Shown piece by piece: positions 16,975 through 28,390 of a DNA stretch of 40,000 nucleotides; within the stretch, counting starts at the first letter, position 1, and every line of letters begins with the position of its first letter. Position numbers and translations under genes: made by a program. The notes under the pieces were generated by a model. It worked only from the letters and a program-made list of their open reading frames with translations. It was not told the DNA's origin and ran no database searches. This DNA comes from Bacteroidota bacterium. GTDB taxonomy: Bacteria > Bacteroidota > Bacteroidia > B-17B0 > Aurantibacillaceae. The DNA lies in the NCBI GenBank assembly GCA_052035725.1, contig JBPOHJ010000019.1, positions 38,163 to 78,162 on the forward strand, given 5' to 3'.

Positions 16975-17100
16975 GGGCCCGACCCTGAATCGCGGCAAAG
17001 GCCCGGTGGGCCTTTGAGCGAGCATGTATGCGGTAGATCCTTCACACATGCTGGCTCAAATGTGCACAGCACATTTGCCCTCTGATTCAGGGGGGCGCCC
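16975..17100. other. 126-nt cloverleaf-like element: three near-perfect hairpins closed by a 9-bp (extendable) stem; candidate structured RNA or palindromic repeat element
   Basis: The closing stem pairs CCCTGAATC (16983-16991) with GATTCAGGG (17084-17092). Hairpin 1 is AAAGGCCC ggt GGGCCTTT (16997-17015). Hairpin 2 is GAGCGAGCATGT...ACATGCTGGCTC (17016-17057, 11 of 12 pairs). Hairpin 3 is AAATGTGC aca GCACATTT (17058-17076). Confidence 0.35.
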
Positions 17101-17149
17101 AAATACTAAAAAATACACTATCAATCTTAACTATTTGGTATATTTAATC

Positions 17150-17773
17150 GTGCTGATAAGGATTAACGAAGAGAACATTCGATTTGAAGACATTCAAACC
17201 ATTACCGCCTGTTTAAAAAATGGCGGGGTAATTATTTATCCAACCGATACCGTTTACGCTTTGGGTTGCGATATTCACAGCATGAAGGCCCTTGAAAAGA
17301 TATGCAAACTCAAAGGCATTAAACTCGATAAAGCCAATTTTTCCTTTGTGTGTTCTGACCTCAGTCATCTGTCAAATTACACACGTGCTATTCCCAACCA
17401 CGTGTTTAGGGTAATGAAGCGGGCCTTACCCGGTCCTTATACCTTTATACTTGAAGCCAACAACGAAGTGCCTAAACTCTTAAAACAAAACAAAAAAACC
17501 GTGGGTATTCGTGTGCCGGATAACCAGATTTGTAAAGCCATAGTTGAAGGGCTTGGTAATCCAATAATTTCAACCTCTTTGCACGACAACAGCGATGATA
17601 TTTTAGAATATTTTTCTGATCCTGAGCTTATTCACAGACAATACGGTGAAACAGTGGATATGGTGATTGACGGAGGATTTGGAAACATTCATCCCTCAAC
17701 AATAATCGACTGCAGTGGAGACGAGATGCTTGTAATACGAGAGGGTATGGGAAGTTTAGATGTGTTGGCCTAA
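17150..17773 (+). CDS. tsaC: L-threonylcarbamoyladenylate synthase (YrdC/Sua5 family, short form)
   Basis: The motif GGVIIYPTDTVYALGCD and the overall length fit YrdC. A GTG start at 17150 gives (M)LIRINEEN..., a typical family N-terminus. The track ORF from 17024 runs through the hairpin region. Confidence 0.8.
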   Translation: MLIRINEENIRFEDIQTITACLKNGGVIIYPTDTVYALGCDIHSMKALEKICKLKGIKLDKANFSFVCSDLSHLSNYTRAIPNHVFRVMKRALPGPYTFILEANNEVPKLLKQNKKTVGIRVPDNQICKAIVEGLGNPIISTSLHDNSDDILEYFSDPELIHRQYGETVDMVIDGGFGNIHPSTIIDCSGDEMLVIREGMGSLDVLA

Positions 17774-17865: not shown

Positions 17866-18678
17866 ATGCTGGTTTCAAATAAAACACTGGTGGTAACCGG
17901 AGGCGGAAATGGCATGGGACGGGAATTGGTACTCCTTTTGCTCAAAAAAAACGCCCGGGTTGCAGCTGTCGACATTCGTAAGGAAGCCCTCGAACAAACG
18001 CAGGAACTTGCCGATGAACACAGAAAATCGTTATCGATTCATGTACTCAACATAAGCGATAGGGCGGTGGTTGAACAATTGCCTGAGCAGGTAATTGCTG
18101 CACATGGCAGCATTGACGGGCTCATCAACAACGCGGGCATTATTCAGCCTTTTGTAAAGGTAAAAGACTTACAGTACGATACAATTGATAGGGTGATGCA
18201 GGTCAACTTTAATGGCCTGCTGTATATGACCAAAACCTTTTTGCCGCATTTGCTTAAACGACCTGAGGCGCATATTGTGAACATTTCGAGTATGGGGGGC
18301 TTTTTGCCGGTACCCGGACAAACCATTTACGGTGCTTCTAAAGCAGCGGTAAAATTGTTTACCGAAGGATTGCACTCTGAATTAACCGAAACAACCGTTA
18401 GGGTAAGTATTGTGTTTCCGGGAGCCATTGGTACGCAAATTGCAGAGAATTCGGGTGTTGTTGCCAGTGCCGAAATGCAGGAGATGACCAAATCAAGTAA
18501 CATCAAAATGCTTCCTGCATCTAAAGCGGCTGAACTTATCGTTAGAGGTATGGAAAACAACGCATACCGGGTGCTGGTGGGTTCTGATTCAAAGTTGATG
18601 GATTTGCTTTACCGCTTTAATCCCAAATTTGCGGCAGGGTTCATTTACAAACAAATGAAGGCTTTGCTGCCTAAGTAA
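17866..18678 (+). CDS. SDR family oxidoreductase
   Basis: TGGGNGMGR cofactor motif, NNAG, and catalytic YGASKAA (YxxxK). Confidence 0.85.
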   Translation: MLVSNKTLVVTGGGNGMGRELVLLLLKKNARVAAVDIRKEALEQTQELADEHRKSLSIHVLNISDRAVVEQLPEQVIAAHGSIDGLINNAGIIQPFVKVKDLQYDTIDRVMQVNFNGLLYMTKTFLPHLLKRPEAHIVNISSMGGFLPVPGQTIYGASKAAVKLFTEGLHSELTETTVRVSIVFPGAIGTQIAENSGVVASAEMQEMTKSSNIKMLPASKAAELIVRGMENNAYRVLVGSDSKLMDLLYRFNPKFAAGFIYKQMKALLPK

Positions 18679-18826: not shown

Positions 18827-19297
18827 TTAGTTGAGTTTTTTCCAAAAAATAATTTTGTCTTCGCCTTCATTCCAAAAATCCTTGATTCTGGCTTCTTGTC
18901 TGTAACCGAGTTTGAGGTAAAATTGTCGGGTTAAGGCATACTGGTCTAAACTGGAAGTTTCAACAATTAACACTCTATGGCCTTGTTGAGCCAGTAATTT
19001 TTCAATGAAGTTCATCATTTTTCCTCCAATGCCTTGACCTTGTAATTCCTTTCGCACGGCAATTGCATAAAGGTTGTAGGTTCCCTTGGTGAGTTTTTCT
19101 GCTGCACAATAACCGAGTGCAATGGGTTTGGTTTTATATACGCAGGTAAACCAAATGTCTGTAGAATCTTTGTTGCTAATATAGTCAGCCATCATTTCGT
19201 CAAGCAGTTCCGACGGAAAGAGTTCGCTGGAGTCTAGTACTTCCTTTAGTGCCGGTAGATCTTGAAGTTGCACTTTTCTTATTTGTTGATCAGGCAT
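18827..19297 (-). CDS. GNAT family N-acetyltransferase
   Basis: Acetyl-CoA motif RKELQGQGIGGKMM. 156 aa. Confidence 0.8.
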   Translation of the reverse strand: MPDQQIRKVQLQDLPALKEVLDSSELFPSELLDEMMADYISNKDSTDIWFTCVYKTKPIALGYCAAEKLTKGTYNLYAIAVRKELQGQGIGGKMMNFIEKLLAQQGHRVLIVETSSLDQYALTRQFYLKLGYRQEARIKDFWNEGEDKIIFWKKLN

Positions 19298-19303
19298 AGG
19301 TGT

Positions 19304-19606
19304 TTATTTTTTCTTGTTAGAAAATGCTGTGTTTAAGTCGTTTAAAACGGTATGAGGATGGGCATCAATAATGGCAATTGTTGGATTGGTTTTGGGAAAC
19401 TCCTTATGAAATAGTTCCCTGCTTTCCTTGTCAACGCCACCGCCAATGATAACCGCATCAAACGTGTTTGATTGGAAACTGAGCAATGCCTCCTGGTTAG
19501 TGATTTTTCCAATTGCCTTGTAGCCATGTTGCTTGAGAATTTCGGTAATTTTAGCAAGCATGTCTGCATGTCGTCCAATTATTAAAATGTTCTCTCCGTG
19601 TCCCAT
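19304..19606 (-). CDS. hypothetical small protein (flavodoxin-like / receiver-like alternating beta-alpha pattern)
   Basis: 100-aa ORF ending 6 nt upstream of the GNAT gene's start. I see no convincing phospho-acceptor pocket. Confidence 0.5.
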   Translation of the reverse strand: MGHGENILIIGRHADMLAKITEILKQHGYKAIGKITNQEALLSFQSNTFDAVIIGGGVDKESRELFHKEFPKTNPTIAIIDAHPHTVLNDLNTAFSNKKK

Positions 19607-19967
19607 AGTTTAACAGATGTGCCAATTAAACAGCCAAAATTAGGCTACTTAGTGTGGTTAATTTGCTGTTTTGTATTATTGGTTTGCCGTGAAGTTAAAG
19701 ATTTTGAAACAAACGCGCATAACGTTTCTATTCGAAACAGGCCGCCATCATGCATGCACCAAGCTTGTTGAAGTCTCAGCCAAAGGCACTGCTCTATTAA
19801 ACAGGGCTTGCTTGCTGCTAAAGTTCAGCGGATTTTTGAATAGGCTTGTGTGTCAGTAATGTCTCTAGTTCCTTTAGCGTCACTTGGCTGTTGTGGCTCT
19901 TGAGTTTTTTTACAATTTGTTCATCTTGGCAATTTCATTCTTACAAAAATTGCTTGCAATGTTAAGT

Positions 19968-20366
19968 TTATTTGTCTGCTATTGGTGCTTTTTTGTGTCT
20001 GCCCCATGAAACAACCATCGCAATTAAGAGCATCACAATATTAAAGCCTATGTCTTTTACTTCGCCTCTTGAAACATGAAAGATAATTGCAGCAACCATT
20101 AATGCAACTATTCCATAGGCCGAAAATACTGTGAGTTGGGTTTTTATGCGAAGTAAAGTCGGCAACACAATTCCGATTCCGGCTAATAAGTCAACAATAC
20201 CTGTCAACAAAACAAGATTGGCGTTGTCTTTTACCCAAGGGTAGGGTAAGTCTGTTGGTTTAACTAATTTCATAGTGCCGGCCCAAACAAAAGTTACAGC
20301 TAAAAGTCCCTGGGCAATCCAAAGCAGTAAGTTTAGTGTCTTTGATGTTTTTTGTTCTGTTGTCAT
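19968..20366 (-). CDS. DoxX family membrane protein
   Basis: 132 aa with four TM segments. The N-terminal LLLWIAQGLLAVTFVWAGTMKL is typical of DoxX-like proteins. Confidence 0.7.
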   Translation of the reverse strand: MTTEQKTSKTLNLLLWIAQGLLAVTFVWAGTMKLVKPTDLPYPWVKDNANLVLLTGIVDLLAGIGIVLPTLLRIKTQLTVFSAYGIVALMVAAIIFHVSRGEVKDIGFNIVMLLIAMVVSWGRHKKAPIADK

Positions 20367-20434
20367 AAATTTAGTGGTGTTGTTTGATTTTAGTTAGGCT
20401 GTTTTACAATAACTGCTCTTAGTGGCTGGTATGC

Positions 20435-20911
20435 TTATTTTGTTTTTATTGGTATCCAAATTTCTTCTTCAGATGTTGGGTCGTTGTTTTTGTAGTTGTC
20501 TCCCAACACTTCAAAATGCGGTCTGTCGTCTAAAGTGTAATGCGATGATGGTAACCAAGTACCAAAAATATATTCAAAAATTGCATTGTCCGTGTTCAAA
20601 CCCTTGTAGTCAAAAACGGCATAAAGCCCGCCTTCTAACACAAATGTTTCCAATTCGCTAGGTACAATGTCAAAGTTGGCAACTTCCACAGCAGCCCATC
20701 TTACAAATTCATTTGTCAACTTGAAGTCCTCAAAATGATGAGGTTTGTATACAACCAGTGAAATTAGGTCCTTGGTCAAGTTATTGGTGATTTCCTTTCG
20801 TCTTGGAGAAAAACTCTGCCAAAGTTCGCCAATTTTGTAGTCTGCTAAACTCATGGTGAGTTGTTTGCCTATTAATTGTTTTTTGTTTAGTTTTTCAATT
20901 TTAGGGATCAT
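20435..20911 (-). CDS. GyrI-like small-molecule-binding domain protein
   Basis: 158 aa. Pattern ...LIGKQLTMSL...WQSF...HFEVLGDNY...EEEIWIPIK, typical of GyrI-like / AraC effector-binding domains. Confidence 0.7.
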   Translation of the reverse strand: MIPKIEKLNKKQLIGKQLTMSLADYKIGELWQSFSPRRKEITNNLTKDLISLVVYKPHHFEDFKLTNEFVRWAAVEVANFDIVPSELETFVLEGGLYAVFDYKGLNTDNAIFEYIFGTWLPSSHYTLDDRPHFEVLGDNYKNNDPTSEEEIWIPIKTK

Positions 20912-20971
20912 TATTCTAATAACAAGTCTATAGGATCATCCTTTTTTTCTGCATTATTAATATGGTCGTAT

Positions 20972-21041
20972 TGCAGCCGTGCTCTGGTCGCATTTTCAAA
21001 TGTACGAATGTCCTCTTAAATTACAACGCCCAAATGCGCTG
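20972..21041. repeat. conserved downstream element, copy after the 360-aa gene
   Basis: It is colinear with 26284-26345. Read on the minus strand, both carry CG.ATTT..G..TTGTAA.TT...G..ACATTCGTAC, then 17-25 nt, then GGCTGCA. Confidence 0.45.
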
Positions 21042-21074
21042 CATAAGGCATATTTGCTGTTATTTGCAGTTTGA

Positions 21075-22157
21075 CTATTTGTTCCGTCTGACAAATAATA
21101 GCGCATTCAGGGAAAGACTAAATACTAGTACTAAATAAATCGAGATTGTCTTAAAGTCCAAAAGGCTGGTTGAGTTCGTAGTACTTTTATTTGCTGTGAC
21201 AATTTGTTTCAGGTAATAGTTCTCTAAAGTGTCATACCGGGAAAAAACTCTATTAAGGAAAGGAACAAAAAGTGCCTTGGTCGAGTATTCGGAAAGTCCG
21301 AAAGTAATGTATAAGGTAACTGTGGCATTTGTGTCAATTGAGTCTGTTGTCAAGCATTTATATTCAATTGGGCCTATATTCTTAAAACCTTGGATGATAA
21401 ATGGGCCCTTGAATTCTGAGGTCCATTTTTTGTAATAGAAAGTGCTGTCATTTACAAAGGCCAAATAGTCAGCGTAGTTCAGATTAATAATATGAATTAA
21501 GTCTGAAAAGATATGTACAACTGTGTCTCCGTGTAAAATATGAAATTTATCGTTTTCATAGAAGTATGTCGGATAAGGTGGTGAATTGTATATTTCAATT
21601 TGATCTTGCCTTGTTTTAATGAGTGAATTTACCAACGTGTCATTGGTTTTTGCGATTGACAAAATTGTGTAATAAGGGATGCTGTAACATGATGTGTTTT
21701 TGCTTAGAGTTGGGAGTGTTCTAAGAGTTTGATGTTTTTTTATGGTTGCGGTATTATTGATGGCCCATTGAATTAGATTTAATGCTTGAGCAATGGAAAA
21801 ACTGCGGTCTCTAATAACAATTACAATTCCTGAATCAAGGTTCCAGTGCTTGGAGTCCTTTTTTTCTGTTGAATACGAAAATTCGTTGTAGCCAAGGGTA
21901 AAGGATGTTGAATCTGTTGATGTGTAGTATTTTTCATAATCAAGAAAAACTTTTACTCGTGTATTGAAATTTCGCTTGAGCAACTTATCGGCAAAAACTG
22001 CTAAAATTTCAATTTTTTGCGCCAAAGCTTGATTCGTTCCCGAACTTGTGTACCGAACAATAAGCCTGTCTTTATGGATAAACTTGACGACGTCCATATT
22101 TCCATAACAAATCTGTAATGAAAATAGGAATAGAAGTATTTTAATTAGTCTGGTCAA
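21075..22157 (-). CDS. hypothetical protein with a signal peptide and a C-terminal TM anchor
   Basis: 360-aa ORF. Only a TTG (22155-22157) preserves the signal-like N-terminus MTRLIKILLFLFSLQICYG. The C-terminal hydrophobic helix is followed by RRNK. Confidence 0.55.
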   Translation of the reverse strand: MTRLIKILLFLFSLQICYGNMDVVKFIHKDRLIVRYTSSGTNQALAQKIEILAVFADKLLKRNFNTRVKVFLDYEKYYTSTDSTSFTLGYNEFSYSTEKKDSKHWNLDSGIVIVIRDRSFSIAQALNLIQWAINNTATIKKHQTLRTLPTLSKNTSCYSIPYYTILSIAKTNDTLVNSLIKTRQDQIEIYNSPPYPTYFYENDKFHILHGDTVVHIFSDLIHIINLNYADYLAFVNDSTFYYKKWTSEFKGPFIIQGFKNIGPIEYKCLTTDSIDTNATVTLYITFGLSEYSTKALFVPFLNRVFSRYDTLENYYLKQIVTANKSTTNSTSLLDFKTISIYLVLVFSLSLNALLFVRRNK

Positions 22158-22205
22158 ATTGCCATTAACTTTTGTCCAACTAGCACAGCCGAATTACGGA
22201 AACTA

Positions 22206-22236
22206 GCCGGATTTAAAGATAAAAAATTTGTCAGGA
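22206..22236. repeat. copy 1 of a 31-nt intergenic repeat (core TTAAAGATAAAAAATTTGTCA)
   Basis: The 21-nt core at 22213-22233 is identical to 25160-25180. The flanks match as CCgGAT-/CCtGATg and gGA/aGA. Confidence 0.75.
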
Positions 22237-22431
22237 CGCTAAAATAGTCGATGTATCGCCGCAAGGCAAAAGTTCAATGGACGTTTGAGCCAGCTGTTGG
22301 AAAGACCTTGCCATGAATGAACTGCTGCTATTCACACTAGCCTTAGGAGTTGCTGTCTCTTGTCACGGTATCACCATTTGACTATTGTTATGTCCTTGTC
22401 GTAACTTAACTGGCCACTCAGGTAAGTGCCG

Positions 22432-22860
22432 TTAATTGCATACGAATTTATTAAGCAGATAAATTATCAGGATGATGAACAAGCTTAGCACTAAAACGGT
22501 GTTAATTAACAGATCGTAATGTTTTTGGGGGATATGGTGCTTGGGATAAATAACTGTCCATTTACCCGAATTGGCGAAGTCAAGCAACATTTTTGGGGTT
22601 ACCGGAATTCTTTTTACCCGGTCGTATGGTGGTGTGAATAATGCGGCGCCTAAACTTTGGCCTTCTTCGTTTGAGTGAAAATACCAAAGATAAGAGCTCA
22701 TGTCAACTTTAAACTTGATTTGGTACTTTTCTATCATCTCATGAAAGTCGTCACCCCAAACATTTTGGTCTTTAAAAATATCGGTTTGTAAATTGATTAT
22801 TTCTCTTCCAAGAAGGTCATTCAGGAAGGTTAGGATATTTTCTTCAGAATATTGGTTCAT
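22432..22860 (-). CDS. DUF1493-like protein with a C-terminal TM anchor
   Basis: The ATG at 22858-22860 gives MNQYSEENIL... The segments KYQIKFKVDMSSYLWYF and RIPVTPKMLLDFANSGKW match my memory of DUF1493 (ACP-like fold). The track start at 22899 is TTG. Confidence 0.5.
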   Translation of the reverse strand: MNQYSEENILTFLNDLLGREIINLQTDIFKDQNVWGDDFHEMIEKYQIKFKVDMSSYLWYFHSNEEGQSLGAALFTPPYDRVKRIPVTPKMLLDFANSGKWTVIYPKHHIPQKHYDLLINTVLVLSLFIILIIYLLNKFVCN

Positions 22861-23009
22861 GTTGAATCTGCCTTTGGTATTACTTTTTAAAGTTGGCAAG
22901 TAAGTGAACTTGATGAATTCAATAATAAAAGCTATATAGTATCACCATATTTGACACGAAATATAAACCTTCAAATAGGGATTTGACCATCAAATTCTTA
23001 GTGTAACAT

Positions 23010-23687
23010 TTAGGTGTTTTTTATTTCTTTCTCATCCTGTATTTCAATTAGCCGGGGTTCGACGGTATTGTAGTCTTTAATAACTTTTATAGTGATTAGG
23101 GCCAGTGGTATTCCTATTACGTTACCAATCATGCTAACAACAGTACTTAATGTTAATTCCTCAATGGTTTCAGCTTTCATTGAGTAGCGAAAAATAAATT
23201 GGCTAATTACATTGTTTATTATCCAAAGAGTCCACCACCAACCTAATGAAGCTGTCGTAAATTTTTCAGTTACATCCAATCCTTTTTTTATCAGAATATC
23301 TTTAGTTTCCTCGTATAATTCCTTCATTATCTGATAGGGTCGATACAAACAAACTATGGGAACAAACCAACTTCCTGCTGCCCAACCTTCAGTTAGCGAT
23401 AAATGATCTACTCGTAGGTGAAGATTGTAGTAGGCTCTTCTAAACCATTGAATGAAGGTTACGATAGAAATACAATACACTATAAGAGAAATGATTGCGA
23501 TGATTTGTTCTCTGGTGTCATTCGCTTCAGCAATTTCTAATGAAACACCTCCACCATTTGCCGCAGTCTTAAGTAAATCATATTGGAAATATTTAGATAC
23601 CAATGAAACGATTTCCAATACCAATCCTATCCATAATAGTGTTATTGCATTTTTTGCTCTTTGGTCATTGGGTTTTAAAGTTTCCAT
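23010..23687 (-). CDS. DUF4328 domain membrane protein
   Basis: Multi-TM protein with GWAAGSWFVPIVCLYRPYQIMKELY, the characteristic DUF4328 core as I recall it. Confidence 0.6.
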   Translation of the reverse strand: METLKPNDQRAKNAITLLWIGLVLEIVSLVSKYFQYDLLKTAANGGGVSLEIAEANDTREQIIAIISLIVYCISIVTFIQWFRRAYYNLHLRVDHLSLTEGWAAGSWFVPIVCLYRPYQIMKELYEETKDILIKKGLDVTEKFTTASLGWWWTLWIINNVISQFIFRYSMKAETIEELTLSTVVSMIGNVIGIPLALITIKVIKDYNTVEPRLIEIQDEKEIKNT

Positions 23688-23906
23688 TATATTGCTTTTT
23701 TATAATTAAGTAAGTGTGTTATTATTCAACTTTACAGGAGTCATTGCATAAATTCAGTACAAACCTTAAATGTGTCCACCGTGAAGATAAAGTTTTTGAA
23801 GCAAACAAGCCAGAAATGACTGCCCGGGAGAATAACCTTCTATTTAGCCGCCGCATACAAGATTTAATCTGGCTGGTTCCAAACCGCTGTTAGGTGTAGT
23901 AATCAT

Positions 23907-24440
23907 TCAATCAACTTTGGTGCTTTTCCATTTTGTTCCAACTTTTCGATACCAGTACTTTTCGCCTTCAAATTCATAATAGTATGAACCGATAGTATTA
24001 TTATACTTTCTAGTAAAGTCCAAATACTCTGACACATATCTAGAATGAAATTCACATTGATGATATACAATGAAATTAACAGGGAGCCCGTTTTTGTGAG
24101 TTGCAATTACGTCTGGGATGGAATCTTTATCAGTGTGCCAAACGAAGGTTCCATCCAAAACACGAGGATTTCCTTTTGCTGAAGTTCTATTAATGAAAGA
24201 GTGACGGTAATTTTTATTCCTCTTGTCTTTTCTAAAAATTAATACAGGTGTACCATTGTCATAGTATTCGTAACCGAAGAAATAAGATGAAGAGCTGTCC
24301 GTTGGATTTAGATCTGCGTCGAGATATTTGATCCAGTAACCAGTCTTTTTTCCTTTACTGTTTAATTGATTAATTGTGTCATGCTGTCCGTAGAATGCTA
24401 AAGTCAAGATGTTTAATAAGGAAATAACTAATATTCTCAT
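23907..24440 (-). CDS. secreted hypothetical protein, MORN-variant/YwqK-like repeats (weak)
   Basis: Signal peptide MRILVISLLNILTLAFYGQ. The motifs GKKTGYWIKY, YYDNGTPV and HKNGLPV resemble YwqK-type repeats. Confidence 0.5.
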   Translation of the reverse strand: MRILVISLLNILTLAFYGQHDTINQLNSKGKKTGYWIKYLDADLNPTDSSSSYFFGYEYYDNGTPVLIFRKDKRNKNYRHSFINRTSAKGNPRVLDGTFVWHTDKDSIPDVIATHKNGLPVNFIVYHQCEFHSRYVSEYLDFTRKYNNTIGSYYYEFEGEKYWYRKVGTKWKSTKVD

Positions 24441-24483
24441 AATTACTACAAGCGGCTATTATGGGTTGGACGTAATACCGTAT

Positions 24484-25074
24484 TTATTCTTTTCTTAACC
24501 AACCAAGTAGTCTTTCGTTGTCCAATGTCCATAAGCTATCTGAGTTTATTAAACTGATTAATTCTCTCGATTTACCAAAAGGTCCAGGATTTTGCTGAAT
24601 AATTTCAATTTCATTATCAGTAACGTTAGAAACAATTGCGACGTGTCCATACTTATTAAAGATCGAACCTTTAAAAACAACTAAATCATCGATTCGTGGT
24701 TTTGTATGACTGCCATTTTTGAATTGAACCAAGTTACGTTTTTTGTTTATCGTCCCATCTGTAAGCTCCTCATCAAAAAAATCTTTCGCGTTGCCAAAAG
24801 CGTCGGGCATTTTGTGATTTAAATGTTCGTAATAGTAACGCTTAACAAATTCAACACATTGATATTTGATTCCGATATTATAATTGTCTGCAGAAGTGTT
24901 ACGTCCAGAAGAATTGTCAACGCCGCCATTATAATAAACTATAACATTGTTTAAGCTATCAATGTGCTGCCCGACTTTGTAATTAAAATTAAAATTTACT
25001 TTTTTACCTAGTTTGTATATGGCGAAGGCCGCTAAACAAAATACCAGGAGAATTATTACTCGACTTTTTTTCAT
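24484..25074 (-). CDS. CHAP domain amidase/peptidase with an N-terminal membrane anchor
   Basis: The ATG at 25072-25074 gives MKKSRVIILLVFCLAAFAIY. The catalytic Cys context is YQCVEFVKRYY. The His context is YGHVAIVSNV, with E/N downstream. The track start at 25152 is a TTG extension. Confidence 0.7.
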   Translation of the reverse strand: MKKSRVIILLVFCLAAFAIYKLGKKVNFNFNYKVGQHIDSLNNVIVYYNGGVDNSSGRNTSADNYNIGIKYQCVEFVKRYYYEHLNHKMPDAFGNAKDFFDEELTDGTINKKRNLVQFKNGSHTKPRIDDLVVFKGSIFNKYGHVAIVSNVTDNEIEIIQQNPGPFGKSRELISLINSDSLWTLDNERLLGWLRKE

Positions 25075-25120
25075 TAATGATTTTGGGATATCAATCCAAC
25101 GGATTACCAATAAACTTCGT

Positions 25121-25132
25121 TCAATTGGCGCC
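25121..25132. repeat. left arm of a 12-bp perfect inverted repeat (TCAATTGGCGCC)
   Basis: Its exact reverse complement is at 25271-25282. Confidence 0.8.
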
Positions 25133-25152
25133 GATAATATAAGGGTAGCCAA

Positions 25153-25183
25153 CCTGATGTTAAAGATAAAAAATTTGTCAAGA
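25153..25183. repeat. copy 2 of the 31-nt intergenic repeat
   Basis: See copy 1. This copy lies upstream of the CHAP gene, inside the inverted-repeat-bracketed segment. Confidence 0.75.
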
Positions 25184-25270
25184 TCTTAAAGAGATAAATC
25201 AGTCGCGTCACTAAAACTTAACTGCCCAAAAACGACAGCTGCTTTGAAGGAATCTGACACTCTTCCAGGT

Positions 25271-25282
25271 GGCGCCAATTGA
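25271..25282. repeat. right arm of the 12-bp perfect inverted repeat (GGCGCCAATTGA)
   Basis: Exact reverse complement of 25121-25132. The two arms bracket 162 bp in total. Confidence 0.8.
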
Positions 25283-25301
25283 CTCTTAGCGACTAGTTGC
25301 A

Positions 25302-26171
25302 TCAGTTTTTAATAAGCAGTCTATTCTTAATTCGATTGTCAGATTTGCATCTTAGAACATAGGCACCAGATGGCAACATTGAAATATCAATCACGCTATC
25401 AGTTTGTTTCCAATCTCTGACTTCAAGTACGCATTCACCAATACAATTTATAAATTCTATATTCGTTGGAACCCAATTGTCGACCGAAATTGATATGCTA
25501 TTATTGGAAGGGTTGGGGAAAATAGTAAAATGTTGGGAGAGCAAATCATTTGAGCTGACACCGACTGGCAGTGAGCAGCTTAAACTGCTTTGGGCATTGG
25601 AATAAATAGCAGTCGCTGAATTATTATTTACTAAACAAATGAGGTTTCTTGTTGTATTAAATGTATTGCATAAAGGAAAGAGAAGCGCAAATGTAGATCC
25701 AACACCTTCAATTATTTTGCCGGGGCCGTTACCCCCAAAATTAAACCTTTTATGATAGATTCCGTCGTTAAGAAGTACACTGTCTTTGTAAGTCAATGTG
25801 GCGGTTATTACTCCGGTTACACAAAAGAGTTGGGCGGTATCTCCTACATTTTTGTCAAAATTATAAAGTATTTTTTCCTGATTATTGACTAAAATAATAA
25901 CTCTTTTAAGAATTGTGTCTTGTCTGAGTAAAATTGGATAAAACATTTGAAGGCAGGATGAACCATCCGCAGATAAAAGATTGTAATTAATACCATTTAC
26001 AATAGAGTCCTTTTCGACCCTTAATTGATAAATTGAGGGACCACTTGTGCTAGGAATAGTTTGACAATACTCATACCAGTAATGATTGTTGTCAAGTGGC
26101 ATTTTAATGTACTGAGCATGAAGTGATGTTATACTCAACAACAATGTCAACCAAAGTAGTATTTTATTCAT
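25302..26171 (-). CDS. T9SS type A sorting-domain protein; N-terminal domain unknown
   Basis: Signal peptide MNKILLWLTLLLSITSLHAQ. The C-terminal ~80 aa (FTIFPNPSNNSISISV...IDISMLPSGAYVLRCKS...LLIKN) fit the Por/T9SS C-terminal domain. Confidence 0.7.
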   Translation of the reverse strand: MNKILLWLTLLLSITSLHAQYIKMPLDNNHYWYEYCQTIPSTSGPSIYQLRVEKDSIVNGINYNLLSADGSSCLQMFYPILLRQDTILKRVIILVNNQEKILYNFDKNVGDTAQLFCVTGVITATLTYKDSVLLNDGIYHKRFNFGGNGPGKIIEGVGSTFALLFPLCNTFNTTRNLICLVNNNSATAIYSNAQSSLSCSLPVGVSSNDLLSQHFTIFPNPSNNSISISVDNWVPTNIEFINCIGECVLEVRDWKQTDSVIDISMLPSGAYVLRCKSDNRIKNRLLIKN

Positions 26172-26283
26172 GGTGTAATAATTAAATTGTAATATAAGTT
26201 AAGACGTCTTTAAGAACCAAAGGTTACATATGTTGTCATATAAATCTGTCTCTTTCTGCTTTATGTTTGGCAGTTACAAGTTG

Positions 26284-26345
26284 TGCAGCCTTCTTCGTTA
26301 TTAAAGTACGAATGTAGGCCCGAATTTACAATACTGAAATACGAC
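26284..26345. repeat. conserved downstream element, copy after the 166-aa gene
   Basis: See 20972-21041. It shares an exact 10-mer (GTACGAATGT on the plus strand) plus colinear flanking matches. Confidence 0.45.
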
Positions 26346-26373
26346 GTTTAACTTTTAGTGACGTTAGGCACAG

Positions 26374-26874
26374 TTAATTAAATATTTTATTAAAAATATC
26401 CTTAAGTTCTTGCATGTCCTTCTCGGACTTTTTGGAAAACCGACCAATACCAATAGTATTATTTGTCATTGTATTCACTTGGTCGCCCTTTATTAAATCA
26501 TAATTAACCAAGTTTTTCTTATCGATAGTAAATATCTTGAAGAAAAAATAGTCATCACCTTTTTCAATAGAGGTCATTTTAAAGTCAATGTCTCGAAACG
26601 CAACAGATCTAATTTCTTTGTCATTAGAAGGGTCTGAATATCCATTTTCCACAATTTTTATTCGTTCAATAATTAAAGAGTCTTTAGTTGTATTTGTCTT
26701 AACGAAATAATTTGTTCTATTAAATTTCAACTTTGCCCCTTGAAAAGGCGGAAAATCTGAAGACTCTATTTTTGTCTTGAAAGCATAAAACACACTGTCA
26801 TTGAGTTGTTGTCCAAATGAGATGGCAAAAAACATCAAAATTATAGTCGTAAAAAAGAGTTTTCTATCTGTCAT
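26374..26874 (-). CDS. hypothetical secreted protein
   Basis: 166-aa ORF. N-terminal hydrophobic signal (LFFTTIILMFFAISFGQ). No motif recognised. Confidence 0.55.
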   Translation of the reverse strand: MTDRKLFFTTIILMFFAISFGQQLNDSVFYAFKTKIESSDFPPFQGAKLKFNRTNYFVKTNTTKDSLIIERIKIVENGYSDPSNDKEIRSVAFRDIDFKMTSIEKGDDYFFFKIFTIDKKNLVNYDLIKGDQVNTMTNNTIGIGRFSKKSEKDMQELKDIFNKIFN

Positions 26875-27013
26875 GGTATATTTATTAATAGTGCCTAATT
26901 AGGTTATAGAGCTGATTTAATCACGCCAATCTTATTTTTGCATGGTTTATGGTGATTTTTACTCACTTTTAAATAAACTCAAAACACCTCAGAAATTCTT
27001 CCAAATCCTCAAA

Positions 27014-27442
27014 TCACGATTTACTATTATCTGCAAACCAATTAATGGCCATCTCATAACCCTTCAAACCAAAACCCGAAATGCTTCCCTGGCAATGCCT
27101 GCCCAAATACGATACGTGCCTAAAATCTTCCCTGGCAAATATGTTGCTGATGTGTACCTCTATGGTTGGGATTTGAATGGCCGCCACCGCGTCGGCAATG
27201 GCAATACTGGTATGGGTATACGCTCCGGCGTTTAAAACAATACCATCCATGGTTTTTCCGGCTTCCTGAATTTTGTTAATGAGCTCACCCTCAACATTGC
27301 TCTGGTAATACTGCAAGTTGTGCTGAGGGAATTGGTTTTGTAGCTTTTCAAAATAGCTGGCAAAGCTCAGTTTTCCATAAATGTCCGTTTCGCGTGTGCC
27401 CAGCAAATTTAAATTGGGCCCGTTGATAACAATTAACTTCAT
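27014..27442 (-). CDS. aroQ: type II 3-dehydroquinate dehydratase
   Basis: MKLIVINGPNLNLLGTRETDIYG and the VHISNIFARE motif. 142 aa. Confidence 0.92.
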   Translation of the reverse strand: MKLIVINGPNLNLLGTRETDIYGKLSFASYFEKLQNQFPQHNLQYYQSNVEGELINKIQEAGKTMDGIVLNAGAYTHTSIAIADAVAAIQIPTIEVHISNIFAREDFRHVSYLGRHCQGSISGFGLKGYEMAINWFADNSKS

Positions 27443-27481
27443 GCCATGAATTTACACTATTTACACGATACATTTGAACCC

Positions 27482-28390
27482 ATGTCGAATTGGAAGGTGT
27501 TCGAAAACCGGTTTAAACAGTATTTGCTGCTCGAGCGATCACTCTCTGAAAACAGTCGCGAAGCTTACCTTAACGATATTGCCAAACTCAGAACCTATAG
27601 TGAGTTGTTTCTGAACAATAAAAGCGCCGACACCATTCACAACAAAGACCTTCAGGCATTCAGCGCCTGGATTGCCGAAATGGGCTTCACGCCCTCTACT
27701 CAGGCCAGGGTACTTTCGGGGGTAAAGGCTTTCTACAAGTACCTCTTACTCGAAGATGTGGTAAAAGCCAATCCCGCCGAACTGCTGGAAAGTCCTAAAC
27801 TGAGCCGCAAACTCCCGGTTTTTTTAAGTATACACGAAATCGAACATTTGCTGGGACTAATCGACCGCAGCACCCCCGAAGGGGAACGCAATTTAAGTAT
27901 GCTCGAAACACTTTACAGTTGCGGACTTCGGGTAAGTGAATTGGTGAATCTTAAACTCAGTGATCTGCACCTCGAAGAAGATTATATCAAAGTGTTGGGT
28001 AAAGGTAATAAGGAGCGCCTGGTGCCTATGGGCAAGATTGCCAAACGTTTACTCACTAACTACATTCACAAGGTGCGCTCTCATATGACAGTGAATAAGG
28101 AAGCAGAAGATATTGTATACCTCAATAAAAGAGGCGGGCAACTTAGCAGAGTGATGGTATTTTACATCATCAAAGACCTTGCTAAAAAGGCCGGCGTAAA
28201 AAAAAGGCTGAGTCCGCATACATTTCGCCACTCCTTTGCCACCCATTTGGTAGAAGGCGGGGCCGATTTGCGCGCAGTACAGGAAATGCTGGGTCACGAA
28301 AGCATTACCACCACCGAAATATACACCCACCTCGATCGCCAATACCTGCGCGACAATATTTTAAGTTACCACCCCCGAAACAAAAAATAA
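27482..28390 (+). CDS. xerD: site-specific tyrosine recombinase XerD
   Basis: Catalytic residues are in context: GLRVSEL (R), HTFRHSFATH (H-x-x-R), LGHESITTTEIYTH (H, Y). The N-terminal core-binding motif is YLLLERSLSENSREAY. The ATG at 27482 is preferred over 27446, which lies 3 nt from the aroQ start. Confidence 0.85.
   Translation: MSNWKVFENRFKQYLLLERSLSENSREAYLNDIAKLRTYSELFLNNKSADTIHNKDLQAFSAWIAEMGFTPSTQARVLSGVKAFYKYLLLEDVVKANPAELLESPKLSRKLPVFLSIHEIEHLLGLIDRSTPEGERNLSMLETLYSCGLRVSELVNLKLSDLHLEEDYIKVLGKGNKERLVPMGKIAKRLLTNYIHKVRSHMTVNKEAEDIVYLNKRGGQLSRVMVFYIIKDLAKKAGVKKRLSPHTFRHSFATHLVEGGADLRAVQEMLGHESITTTEIYTHLDRQYLRDNILSYHPRNKK

Follow-up and report, generated by a model that had tools for sequence, protein, structure and literature searches.

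A probable array of integron-like gene cassettes divided by attC-like sites in a Bacteroidota genome

The locus and its post-stop motif

The DNA analysed here, 40,000 nucleotides (nt) of a Bacteroidota genome (hereafter the window; positions 38163-78162 of contig 63 in our numbering), carries nine open reading frames (ORFs) on the minus strand between 19.9 and 26.9 kb, forming an island between the conserved genes aroQ and xerD on one side and a short-chain dehydrogenase (SDR) gene on the other (Table 1). An earlier note on this DNA had described a short motif (coding strand C-N-CTAA-N-AG) just after the stop codons of the island genes; all eight of its motif strings lie at exactly the plus-strand coordinates it gave, and the nine genes are all on the minus strand with their stops where it had placed them. 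We consider it very likely that this motif, made up of TAAC and AG, forms the conserved left core of attC-like recombination sites, and hold with equal confidence that the island is an array of integron-like cassettes divided by such sites and belonging to a Bacteroidota gene-capture system with a simpler recombinase. By analogy, TAAC would be the counterpart of the integron R'' box. The motif stands just after stop codons because the sites begin a few to a few tens of nt past the cassette ORF.

Enrichment was measured on a crude ORF set covering the whole genome (3.34 Mb, 42% G+C; 2,620 ORFs of at least 100 amino acids, aa). CTAANAG occurs no more than 30 nt after the stop in 26 of these (1.0%), divided between four of the nine island genes and 22 of the 2,611 other ORFs (Fisher P = 9e-7; binomial P = 6e-7), and the claim that its position after these stops was unlikely to be chance is thus borne out against the genome's own background (P ~6e-7). 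About 10 of the 22 non-island matches are CTAACAG sites of the same repeat family, on contigs C23, C24, C28, C31, C36, C48 and C49. A chance or post-hoc pattern in AT-rich spacers might be argued from the shortness and degeneracy of the motif and from the CTAAAAG-type matches after core genes, which do look like chance; given the enrichment, and given that models built without the window match the same places, we regard its probability as negligible.

Architecture and co-variation of the sites

A 21-nt block common to two island spacers allowed some dozen copies to be located on other contigs, and repeats of ~200 nt with a common architecture were found at 16-22 places in the genome. On the coding strand each site consists of a variable flank, TAAC, AG, an arm (consensus CCAACTGGCGCC), an internal stretch of 40-170 nt holding its own hairpin, the complementary arm, 5 nt (CAAAC) and GTTA. 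The "CCAA-type" sequence previously noticed beside several motif copies is indeed present, and corresponds to the first palindrome arm, with the coding-strand consensus CCAACTGG. Like attC, these sites are imperfect palindromes with AAC...GTT cores in which structure is kept rather than sequence. They differ from classical attC in that the core is TAAC/GTTA with variable neighbours, the full RYYYAAC/GTTRRRY consensus being present only sometimes, and in that core and arm lie 1-2 nt apart on one side but 5 nt apart on the other. They are also longer in the window genome, at 190-204 nt against ~57-141 nt for classical attC; in related genomes they measure 120-140 nt.

An RNAalifold consensus fold forms an outer helix between the arms, with compensatory changes in 14 of 21 pairs. 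A covariance model built from 11 copies (R1) matches 16 sites in the window genome and has matches in 29 of the 60 congeneric species searched. A second alignment was made from 37 sites at 20 loci and contains no window sequences; 94% of its cells pair, compared with 73% in shuffles and 23-40% with slid partners, and while the fitting of this alignment to the model favours structure and so counts against our interpretation, the slid controls are nonetheless far lower. All 11 arm pairs are changed on both sides, and TAAC and GTTA are nearly invariant (32-34 of the 37 sites). A second model, R2, likewise built without window sequences, matches the window at three places (Table 1). Taken together, the co-variation argues for a folded form of the site, as far as sequence comparison can indicate one.

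The earlier note had offered as its alternative that the motif marks a shared 3' end signal of the island transcripts, whether a terminator, a processing site or a regulator-binding site. The motif does lie 5-20 nt past the stops, the sites hold internal hairpins followed by T runs (e.g. 25240-25220 and 23827-23810), and a conserved block GACAAATTTT.TATCTTTAA precedes the following gene; attC sites are moreover able to influence expression, and recombination and 3' signal roles are not mutually exclusive. As an explanation of the sites, however, this alternative is very unlikely. It gained nothing from a terminator scan, which returned 10 terminator-like sites where 7.7 +/- 3.2 were expected and none at the motif, or from a search of the whole window at gathering thresholds against Rfam, a database that contains no attC model, which returned no match; and it leaves unexplained why the arms co-vary over a distance of 150 nt, as well as the flank complementarity and the link to a recombinase described below. 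A promoter scan likewise found no enrichment and nothing at the motif, using a sigma-70 consensus that is unsuited to Bacteroidota. A generic scan for TAA, an 8-bp helix and TTA after every stop recovered only two of the nine island genes (P = 0.02) over a background of 2.7% per gene; because it catches few island genes over so high a background, it is too weak to settle doubtful spacers.

Complementarity of cassette flanks

Because crossover in integrons splits the site, every cassette of an array opens with sequence complementary to its own left end. For 18 consecutive cassettes we took the 16 nt that start at the upstream GTTA and matched them to the left flank of the following site, reverse-complemented. 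The cassettes come from four arrays, namely one on contig 28 of the window genome, two at close recombinase loci and one in Flavobacterium terrisoli. Seventeen of the 18 cassettes begin with the complement of their own site's left end, with 10-15 of 16 positions in agreement (the mean for the full set of 18 is 13.0). In same-site controls 7.7 of 16 positions agree, due essentially to their common GTTA. Such complementarity therefore points to excision and insertion of ORF-plus-site units at or beside GTTA/TAAC, and is hard to explain otherwise; to judge from sequence, the swapped flanks would be the signature of excised circular cassettes.

A related recombinase and its attachment site

Searching the genome with the integron-integrase model yielded three sub-threshold tyrosine recombinases, one of which, of 377 aa, lies on contig 29. 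Its best family is NCBIfam NF040815, "XerA / integron integrase" (214.6 bits, cut-off 220). The match to TIGR02249, "integron integrase" (207 bits, cut-off 265), comes in two pieces that skip model positions 181-236, and the XerC/XerD scores are well under the XerA/integron-integrase scores, all being below cut-off. When it is aligned to VchIntIA (2a3v), 15 residues of the 377-aa protein stand opposite 57. Its AlphaFold model (predicted local distance difference test, pLDDT, 83) lacks an additional helix in the interval 283-301 and includes an extra, confidently modelled N-terminal beta-rich domain of ~75 residues (1-75); its top fold matches are to archaeal XerA, followed by VchIntIA. By alignment and by model, the insert that defines IntI, an additional domain near patch III, is absent.

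On contig 29 the 377-aa gene is followed, 97 nt past its stop, by GTATAAGTAA/GTTAGTGGC, then by a 123-aa ORF and by a site with the left flank GCCACTAAC, the complement of the start of the 123-aa cassette; the contig ends inside the next cassette. We read this arrangement as an attI-like site plus a first cassette on the same strand behind the recombinase gene. Homologs of the recombinase occur across Bacteroidota, among others in Flavobacterium (with the cultured carriers F. terrisoli PT-3, F. cheonanense JCM 17069 and F. daemonense JCM 19455 among the matches), Chitinophagaceae, Vicingaceae, Cyclobacteriaceae and Sphingobacteriales, and in 19 of 20 loci a TATA..TA/GTTR junction adjoins the gene, 88-121 nt past its stop, with sequences diverging after GTT. 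R1 has 20 matches in 48 homologous loci and a further 12 in two closer ones; without exception they lie downstream of the recombinase gene on the same strand, between small ORFs.

This arrangement bears on whether the sites could be non-autonomous intergenic repeats, such as repetitive extragenic palindromic (REP) sequences, bacterial interspersed mosaic elements (BIMEs) or miniature inverted-repeat transposable elements (MITEs), which spread by themselves, tend to sit after genes and capture no cassettes. As imperfect palindromes of 100-200 nt that are multi-copy, intergenic and break the assembly at contig ends, the sites resemble such elements. Repeats of that kind would be expected in either orientation, with target-site duplications and no dedicated attachment site, whereas all 32 matches near recombinase genes are co-oriented and downstream, the sites share the orientation of small unrelated ORFs, and a conserved attI-type junction lies ahead of the first site. 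No target-site duplications were seen, the flanks being instead cassette-specific complements, and complementarity cassette by cassette (17 of 18) is unexpected of transposing repeats. We therefore give this explanation very little credence.

Several minor observations concern the same loci. Eight of 20 attI regions (e.g. L011:8462-8585) have a TATCT box 51-52 nt ahead of the crossover, and 11 of the 37 attC-like sites (e.g. window 25140-25175) have one 53-59 nt ahead of GTTA; speculatively, the box and the modelled N-terminal domain of the recombinase might together point to a putative arm-type accessory binding site. Contig 28 (L009:2593-3612) encodes another Xer-like recombinase, 339 aa long and sharing 44% identity with the 377-aa protein over the catalytic half; its gene lies 24 kb from the contig-28 array and diverges from it. 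No more than a few kb separate most of the genome's attC-like sites from a contig end (C23, C28, C29, C31, C43, C48 and C52), and many homologous recombinase contigs in public metagenome-assembled genomes (MAGs) stop 0-3 kb past the gene. Evidently, the arrays break short-read assemblies and are under-represented in MAGs.

The island compared with related genomes

In three congeners aroQ abuts the ortholog of the window gene at 17024-17773, with no island between. In the closest relative (G075), whose flank proteins are 82-95% identical, the aroQ-SDR interval measures 2 kb and holds different genes: a 308-aa ORF follows CCTATATGGTA/GTTATGTGCA and ends in TGCACATAAC, a 10-nt complement, and the interval also contains a site homologous to the third-subtype site of the window (20916-21074) together with a family remnant. 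The third-subtype site and the element after the 308-aa gene align over their full length (~100 invariant of 186 columns), while the 360-aa and 308-aa proteins that precede them are unrelated (BLASTP E = 2.6), so that homologous sites follow unrelated genes. The two window genes at 18827-19606 do not occur at the same locus in relatives, and more distant congeners have no attI-like sequence after aroQ. The recombinase family was found in all five genomes tested, including G075, the copy of the window genome lying on contig 29, away from the island. We read the window island as an insertion with cassette turnover that starts at the attI-like junction after aroQ.

Homologs of island genes in other congeners (50-78% identity) occur one by one at unrelated places with no motif after them, except for the 166-aa homolog in G016, and therefore carry no boundary information. 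In that exception (contig 43; L091, ~1600-1750) the gene is also followed by CTGTGCGTAACAG, and gene and site end thus appear to travel together.

The neighbouring gene xerD raises the question of Xer-dependent modules. Dif-like duplex sites have an 11-6-11 layout (28 bp), and short gene modules on Acinetobacter plasmids are bounded by them; the island could be made of similar modules moved by the chromosomal XerD. The gene lies 0.5 kb from the start of the array and diverges from it, which is the classical position of an integrase, and the dedicated 377-aa recombinase is itself Xer-like, with an Xer-type catalytic core. Against this, the boundaries found, although no search aimed at dif-like sites was made, are folded palindromes of 100-200 nt whose arms co-vary and whose only core pair is GTTA/TAAC, unlike 28-bp dif-like sites, and elsewhere the same sites are linked to the 377-aa recombinase family, which has its own attI. 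The product of xerD scores above the XerD equivalog cut-off, and the aroQ/xerD pair is conserved in all congeners inspected, including island-free ones; we have rejected this tyrosine recombinase as the integrase of the island on both grounds and regard an Xer-module origin as highly improbable.

The island feature by feature

Intact sites of the family, as recognised by R1 and R2, occupy the spacers after the T9SS gene (type IX secretion system) and, with a worn left arm, after the DUF1493-like gene (Table 1). For the latter spacer the earlier note had listed a weaker motif instance at 22417-22428, which is not a site end. The perfect 12-bp inverted repeat at 25121-25132/25271-25282 was also considered as an invertible promoter switch; it is rather the arm pair of the site at 25105-25295. 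Neither R1 nor R2 matches the spacers after the 166-aa, DUF4328, 360-aa, Cass2 and CHAP genes, and the site in the 360-aa spacer was recognised only through its homology to the G075 site. The instance at 21057-21066, which had been graded as weak, is a genuine site end.

Table 1. Features of the island and its flanks, listed from the xerD side outward along the minus strand.
Feature	Position	Strand	Details
Conserved flank, xerD	27446-28390	+	TIGR02225, 335 bits, above cut-off
Conserved flank, aroQ	27014-27442	-	aroQ equivalog; with xerD spans 27014-28390
attI-like junction CTATAACCTA/ATTAGGCAC, start of first cassette	26885-26909	-	aligns with attI regions ~100 nt past recombinase stops elsewhere; junction point 26899/26900
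Cassette ORF, 166 aa	26374-26874	-	no family match
Candidate site of 166-aa cassette	26189-26377	-	left end GTGCCTAAC 26363-26371; arms 26343-26354 and 26196-26208, one bulge; right end uncertain
Cassette ORF, 289 aa, T9SS C-terminal sorting domain	25302-26171	-	domain match
Intact attC-like site, subtype A	25105-25295	-	left end GTCGCTAAGAG 25283-25293; right end GTTTA ~25111-25115; arms 25271-25282 and 25121-25132, 12/12 complementary; R1 146 bits; R2 E = 7e-14
CHAP amidase and 177-aa protein, one two-gene cassette (probable)	23907-25074	-	43-nt spacer without a site
Truncated attC-like site, subtype B	23767-23904	-	left end ACACCTAACAG 23887-23897; right half lost; nhmmer E = 1e-19, model positions 6-189; R1 partial match 23775-23876
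Cassette ORF, 225 aa, DUF4328	23010-23687	-	domain match
Short candidate site, ~100 nt	22900-23004	-	left end ACACTAAGAA; arms 22988-22997 and 22906-22915, then ACTTAC
Cassette ORF, DUF1493-like, ~142 aa	22432-22860	-	domain match
attC-like site, subtype A, worn left arm	22160-22362	-	right end AAAGTTAATGGCA 22160-22172; R1 116 bits; R2 match 22160-22306, E = 3e-10
Cassette ORF, 360 aa	21075-22157	-	no family match
attC-like site, third subtype	20916-21074	-	left end CTGCAAATAACAG, right end CTTGTTATTAG
Cassette ORF, 158 aa, Cass2 / GyrI-like	20435-20911	-	PF14526 "integron-associated effector binding protein", 78.8 bits
Orphan left ends only, 68-nt spacer	20393-20426	-	GCCACTAAGAG 20416-20426, AGCCTAAC 20393-20400; rest of site missing
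Cassette ORF, 132 aa, DoxX-like	19968-20366	-	domain match
Decayed attC-like site, subtype B	19629-19897	-	left end GCCACAACAG... 19877-19897; R1 E = 0.004; R2 match 19629-19776, E = 0.0065; nhmmer E = 5e-5
Two co-oriented genes (100 aa; GNAT acetyltransferase, 156 aa), far end of insertion	18827-19606	-	candidate cassettes
Conserved flank, SDR	17866-18678	+	syntenic in G075

Flank complementarity in the window is seen for two to three cassettes, among them the 166-aa and 360-aa ones. The 15 nt past the attI-like junction are, by eye, complementary at 12/15 positions to the left flank (26363-26377) of the site belonging to the 166-aa cassette, and the ends of the 360-aa cassette, GTTAATGGCAATTTGA (22154-22169) and TCAAACTGCAAATAAC (21059-21074), are 13/16 complementary. 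For the candidate site of the 166-aa cassette, the fold z-score is -2.2, and flank complementarity and arm pairing were read from the sequence; the string previously given at 26352-26360 is present and lies in the arm region, while the true end by flank complementarity is the one in Table 1. The minimum-energy fold of the short candidate site pairs its arms right past the motif, and this site is among those caught by the generic scan, with its 2.7% background.

The CHAP amidase and 177-aa genes probably form a single cassette, whose ends, GTTTATTGGTAATC (25102-25115) and GATTACTACACCTAAC (23889-23904), are partly complementary (~10 positions, one 2-nt indel). The pair would fit an effector/immunity or enzyme/partner combination carried as a unit. 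The previously listed motif instance at 24456-24464 falls in the site-free spacer between these two genes; apart from this one, the one at 22417-22428 and the shift by one element at 26352-26360, the earlier list is mostly right. The Cass2 family, to which the 158-aa protein belongs, is named for its occurrence in Vibrio integron cassettes.

Interpretation and proposed mechanism

The attC-like cassette boundary proposed in the earlier note finds support in structured, co-varying sites, in the swapped complementarity of their flanks and in an island content that differs between the two closest genomes. By integron logic the window array corresponds to a cluster of attC sites lacking an integron integrase (CALIN): there are at least two sites in a row, of this system's own kind and not classical attC, and the only tyrosine recombinase near the island is the core XerD. 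Strict membership of the integrons fails on the recombinase.

Under the mechanism that we propose, the recombinase would cut at or beside GTTA/TAAC in a folded site, in hairpin or cruciform form, and cassettes would be excised as circles and inserted at attI, as by integron integrases. The array next to aroQ may have been built in trans by the contig-29 recombinase at a second copy of attI, or alternatively before a local recombinase gene was lost in a common ancestor, and would now be partly decayed.

A number of points weigh against this interpretation. Intact family sites occupy only two of the nine island spacers; of the other seven, two hold decayed sites, one a site of another subtype, two hold candidates that are statistically unsupported, one has orphan ends and one is empty. 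Flank complementarity is absent at the T9SS, DUF4328, Cass2 and DoxX cassette junctions of the window. The recombinase lacks the insert held essential for binding folded attC, and the folded-substrate step is therefore read from co-variation alone, while the contig-29 recombinase is linked to the window array only through the similarity of their sites.

We lean slightly towards a wider proposition, namely that Bacteroidota carry a phylum-wide, undescribed analogue of the integron, in which an Xer-like recombinase without the IntI insert and with an N-terminal beta-rich domain would capture ORF-plus-hairpin cassettes at GTTA/TAAC. In the present genome it would also serve in trans a second attI copy after aroQ, and a housekeeping promoter may thereby drive transcription into a shifting complement of captured genes. 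We found no description of such a system in the full-text literature searched, an absence that is not proof.

Comparison with known systems

The arrays resemble integrons and CALINs in many respects. They consist of small, co-oriented ORFs, most of them uncharacterised, and behind each ORF stands an imperfect palindromic site with AAC/GTT cores at both ends, in which arm structure is kept rather than sequence. R'/R'' flanks are swapped between neighbouring sites, attI lies beside the recombinase gene, arrays without an integrase occur elsewhere in the genome, and close relatives hold different cassettes at the same locus. Besides the features of the sites given above, the differences lie in the recombinase, which lacks the IntI insert, scores below the integron-integrase cut-offs and has the extra N-terminal domain. 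"Inverted integrase" integrons, e.g. that of Treponema denticola, are reported to keep the IntI-specific domain. Our system shares with them a recombinase co-directional with the cassettes and an attachment site past the 3' end of its gene, and differs in that its recombinase family lacks this domain. Archaeal XerA (PDB 4a8e, 5hxy) provides the best sequence and fold matches of the 377-aa recombinase, whereas XerA itself acts on dif. In archaeal integrons attI closely follows intI (Ghaly et al. 2022, doi 10.1101/2022.02.06.479319), as it follows the recombinase gene here; their integrases, in contrast to ours, possess the IntI-specific domain, which is treated as defining in that work and as functionally essential in integron integrases. 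According to the IntegronFinder 2.0 paper, Bacteroidetes are almost integron-free, with only one complete integron, in Salinibacter (doi 10.1101/2022.02.28.482270).

If the system works as its anatomy suggests, folded-site cassette capture would be possible without the IntI-specific domain. Detectors that demand this domain would then miss a large mobile reservoir of accessory genes in soil, freshwater and marine Bacteroidota, including cell-wall amidases, secreted T9SS cargo, toxin-antitoxin genes and restriction genes.

On a practical level, TAAC-AG soon after a stop codon with a GTTA partner 100-200 nt further on could serve as an annotation handle for a cassette boundary, and site boundaries can correct over-extended starts. 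With mechanically assigned TTG starts, ORFs 24484-25152 and 22432-22899 extend into the recombination sites that precede them; the true CHAP start is likely the ATG at 25074, giving the signal-peptide-like MKKSRVIILL..., and that of the DUF1493-like gene the ATG at 22860.

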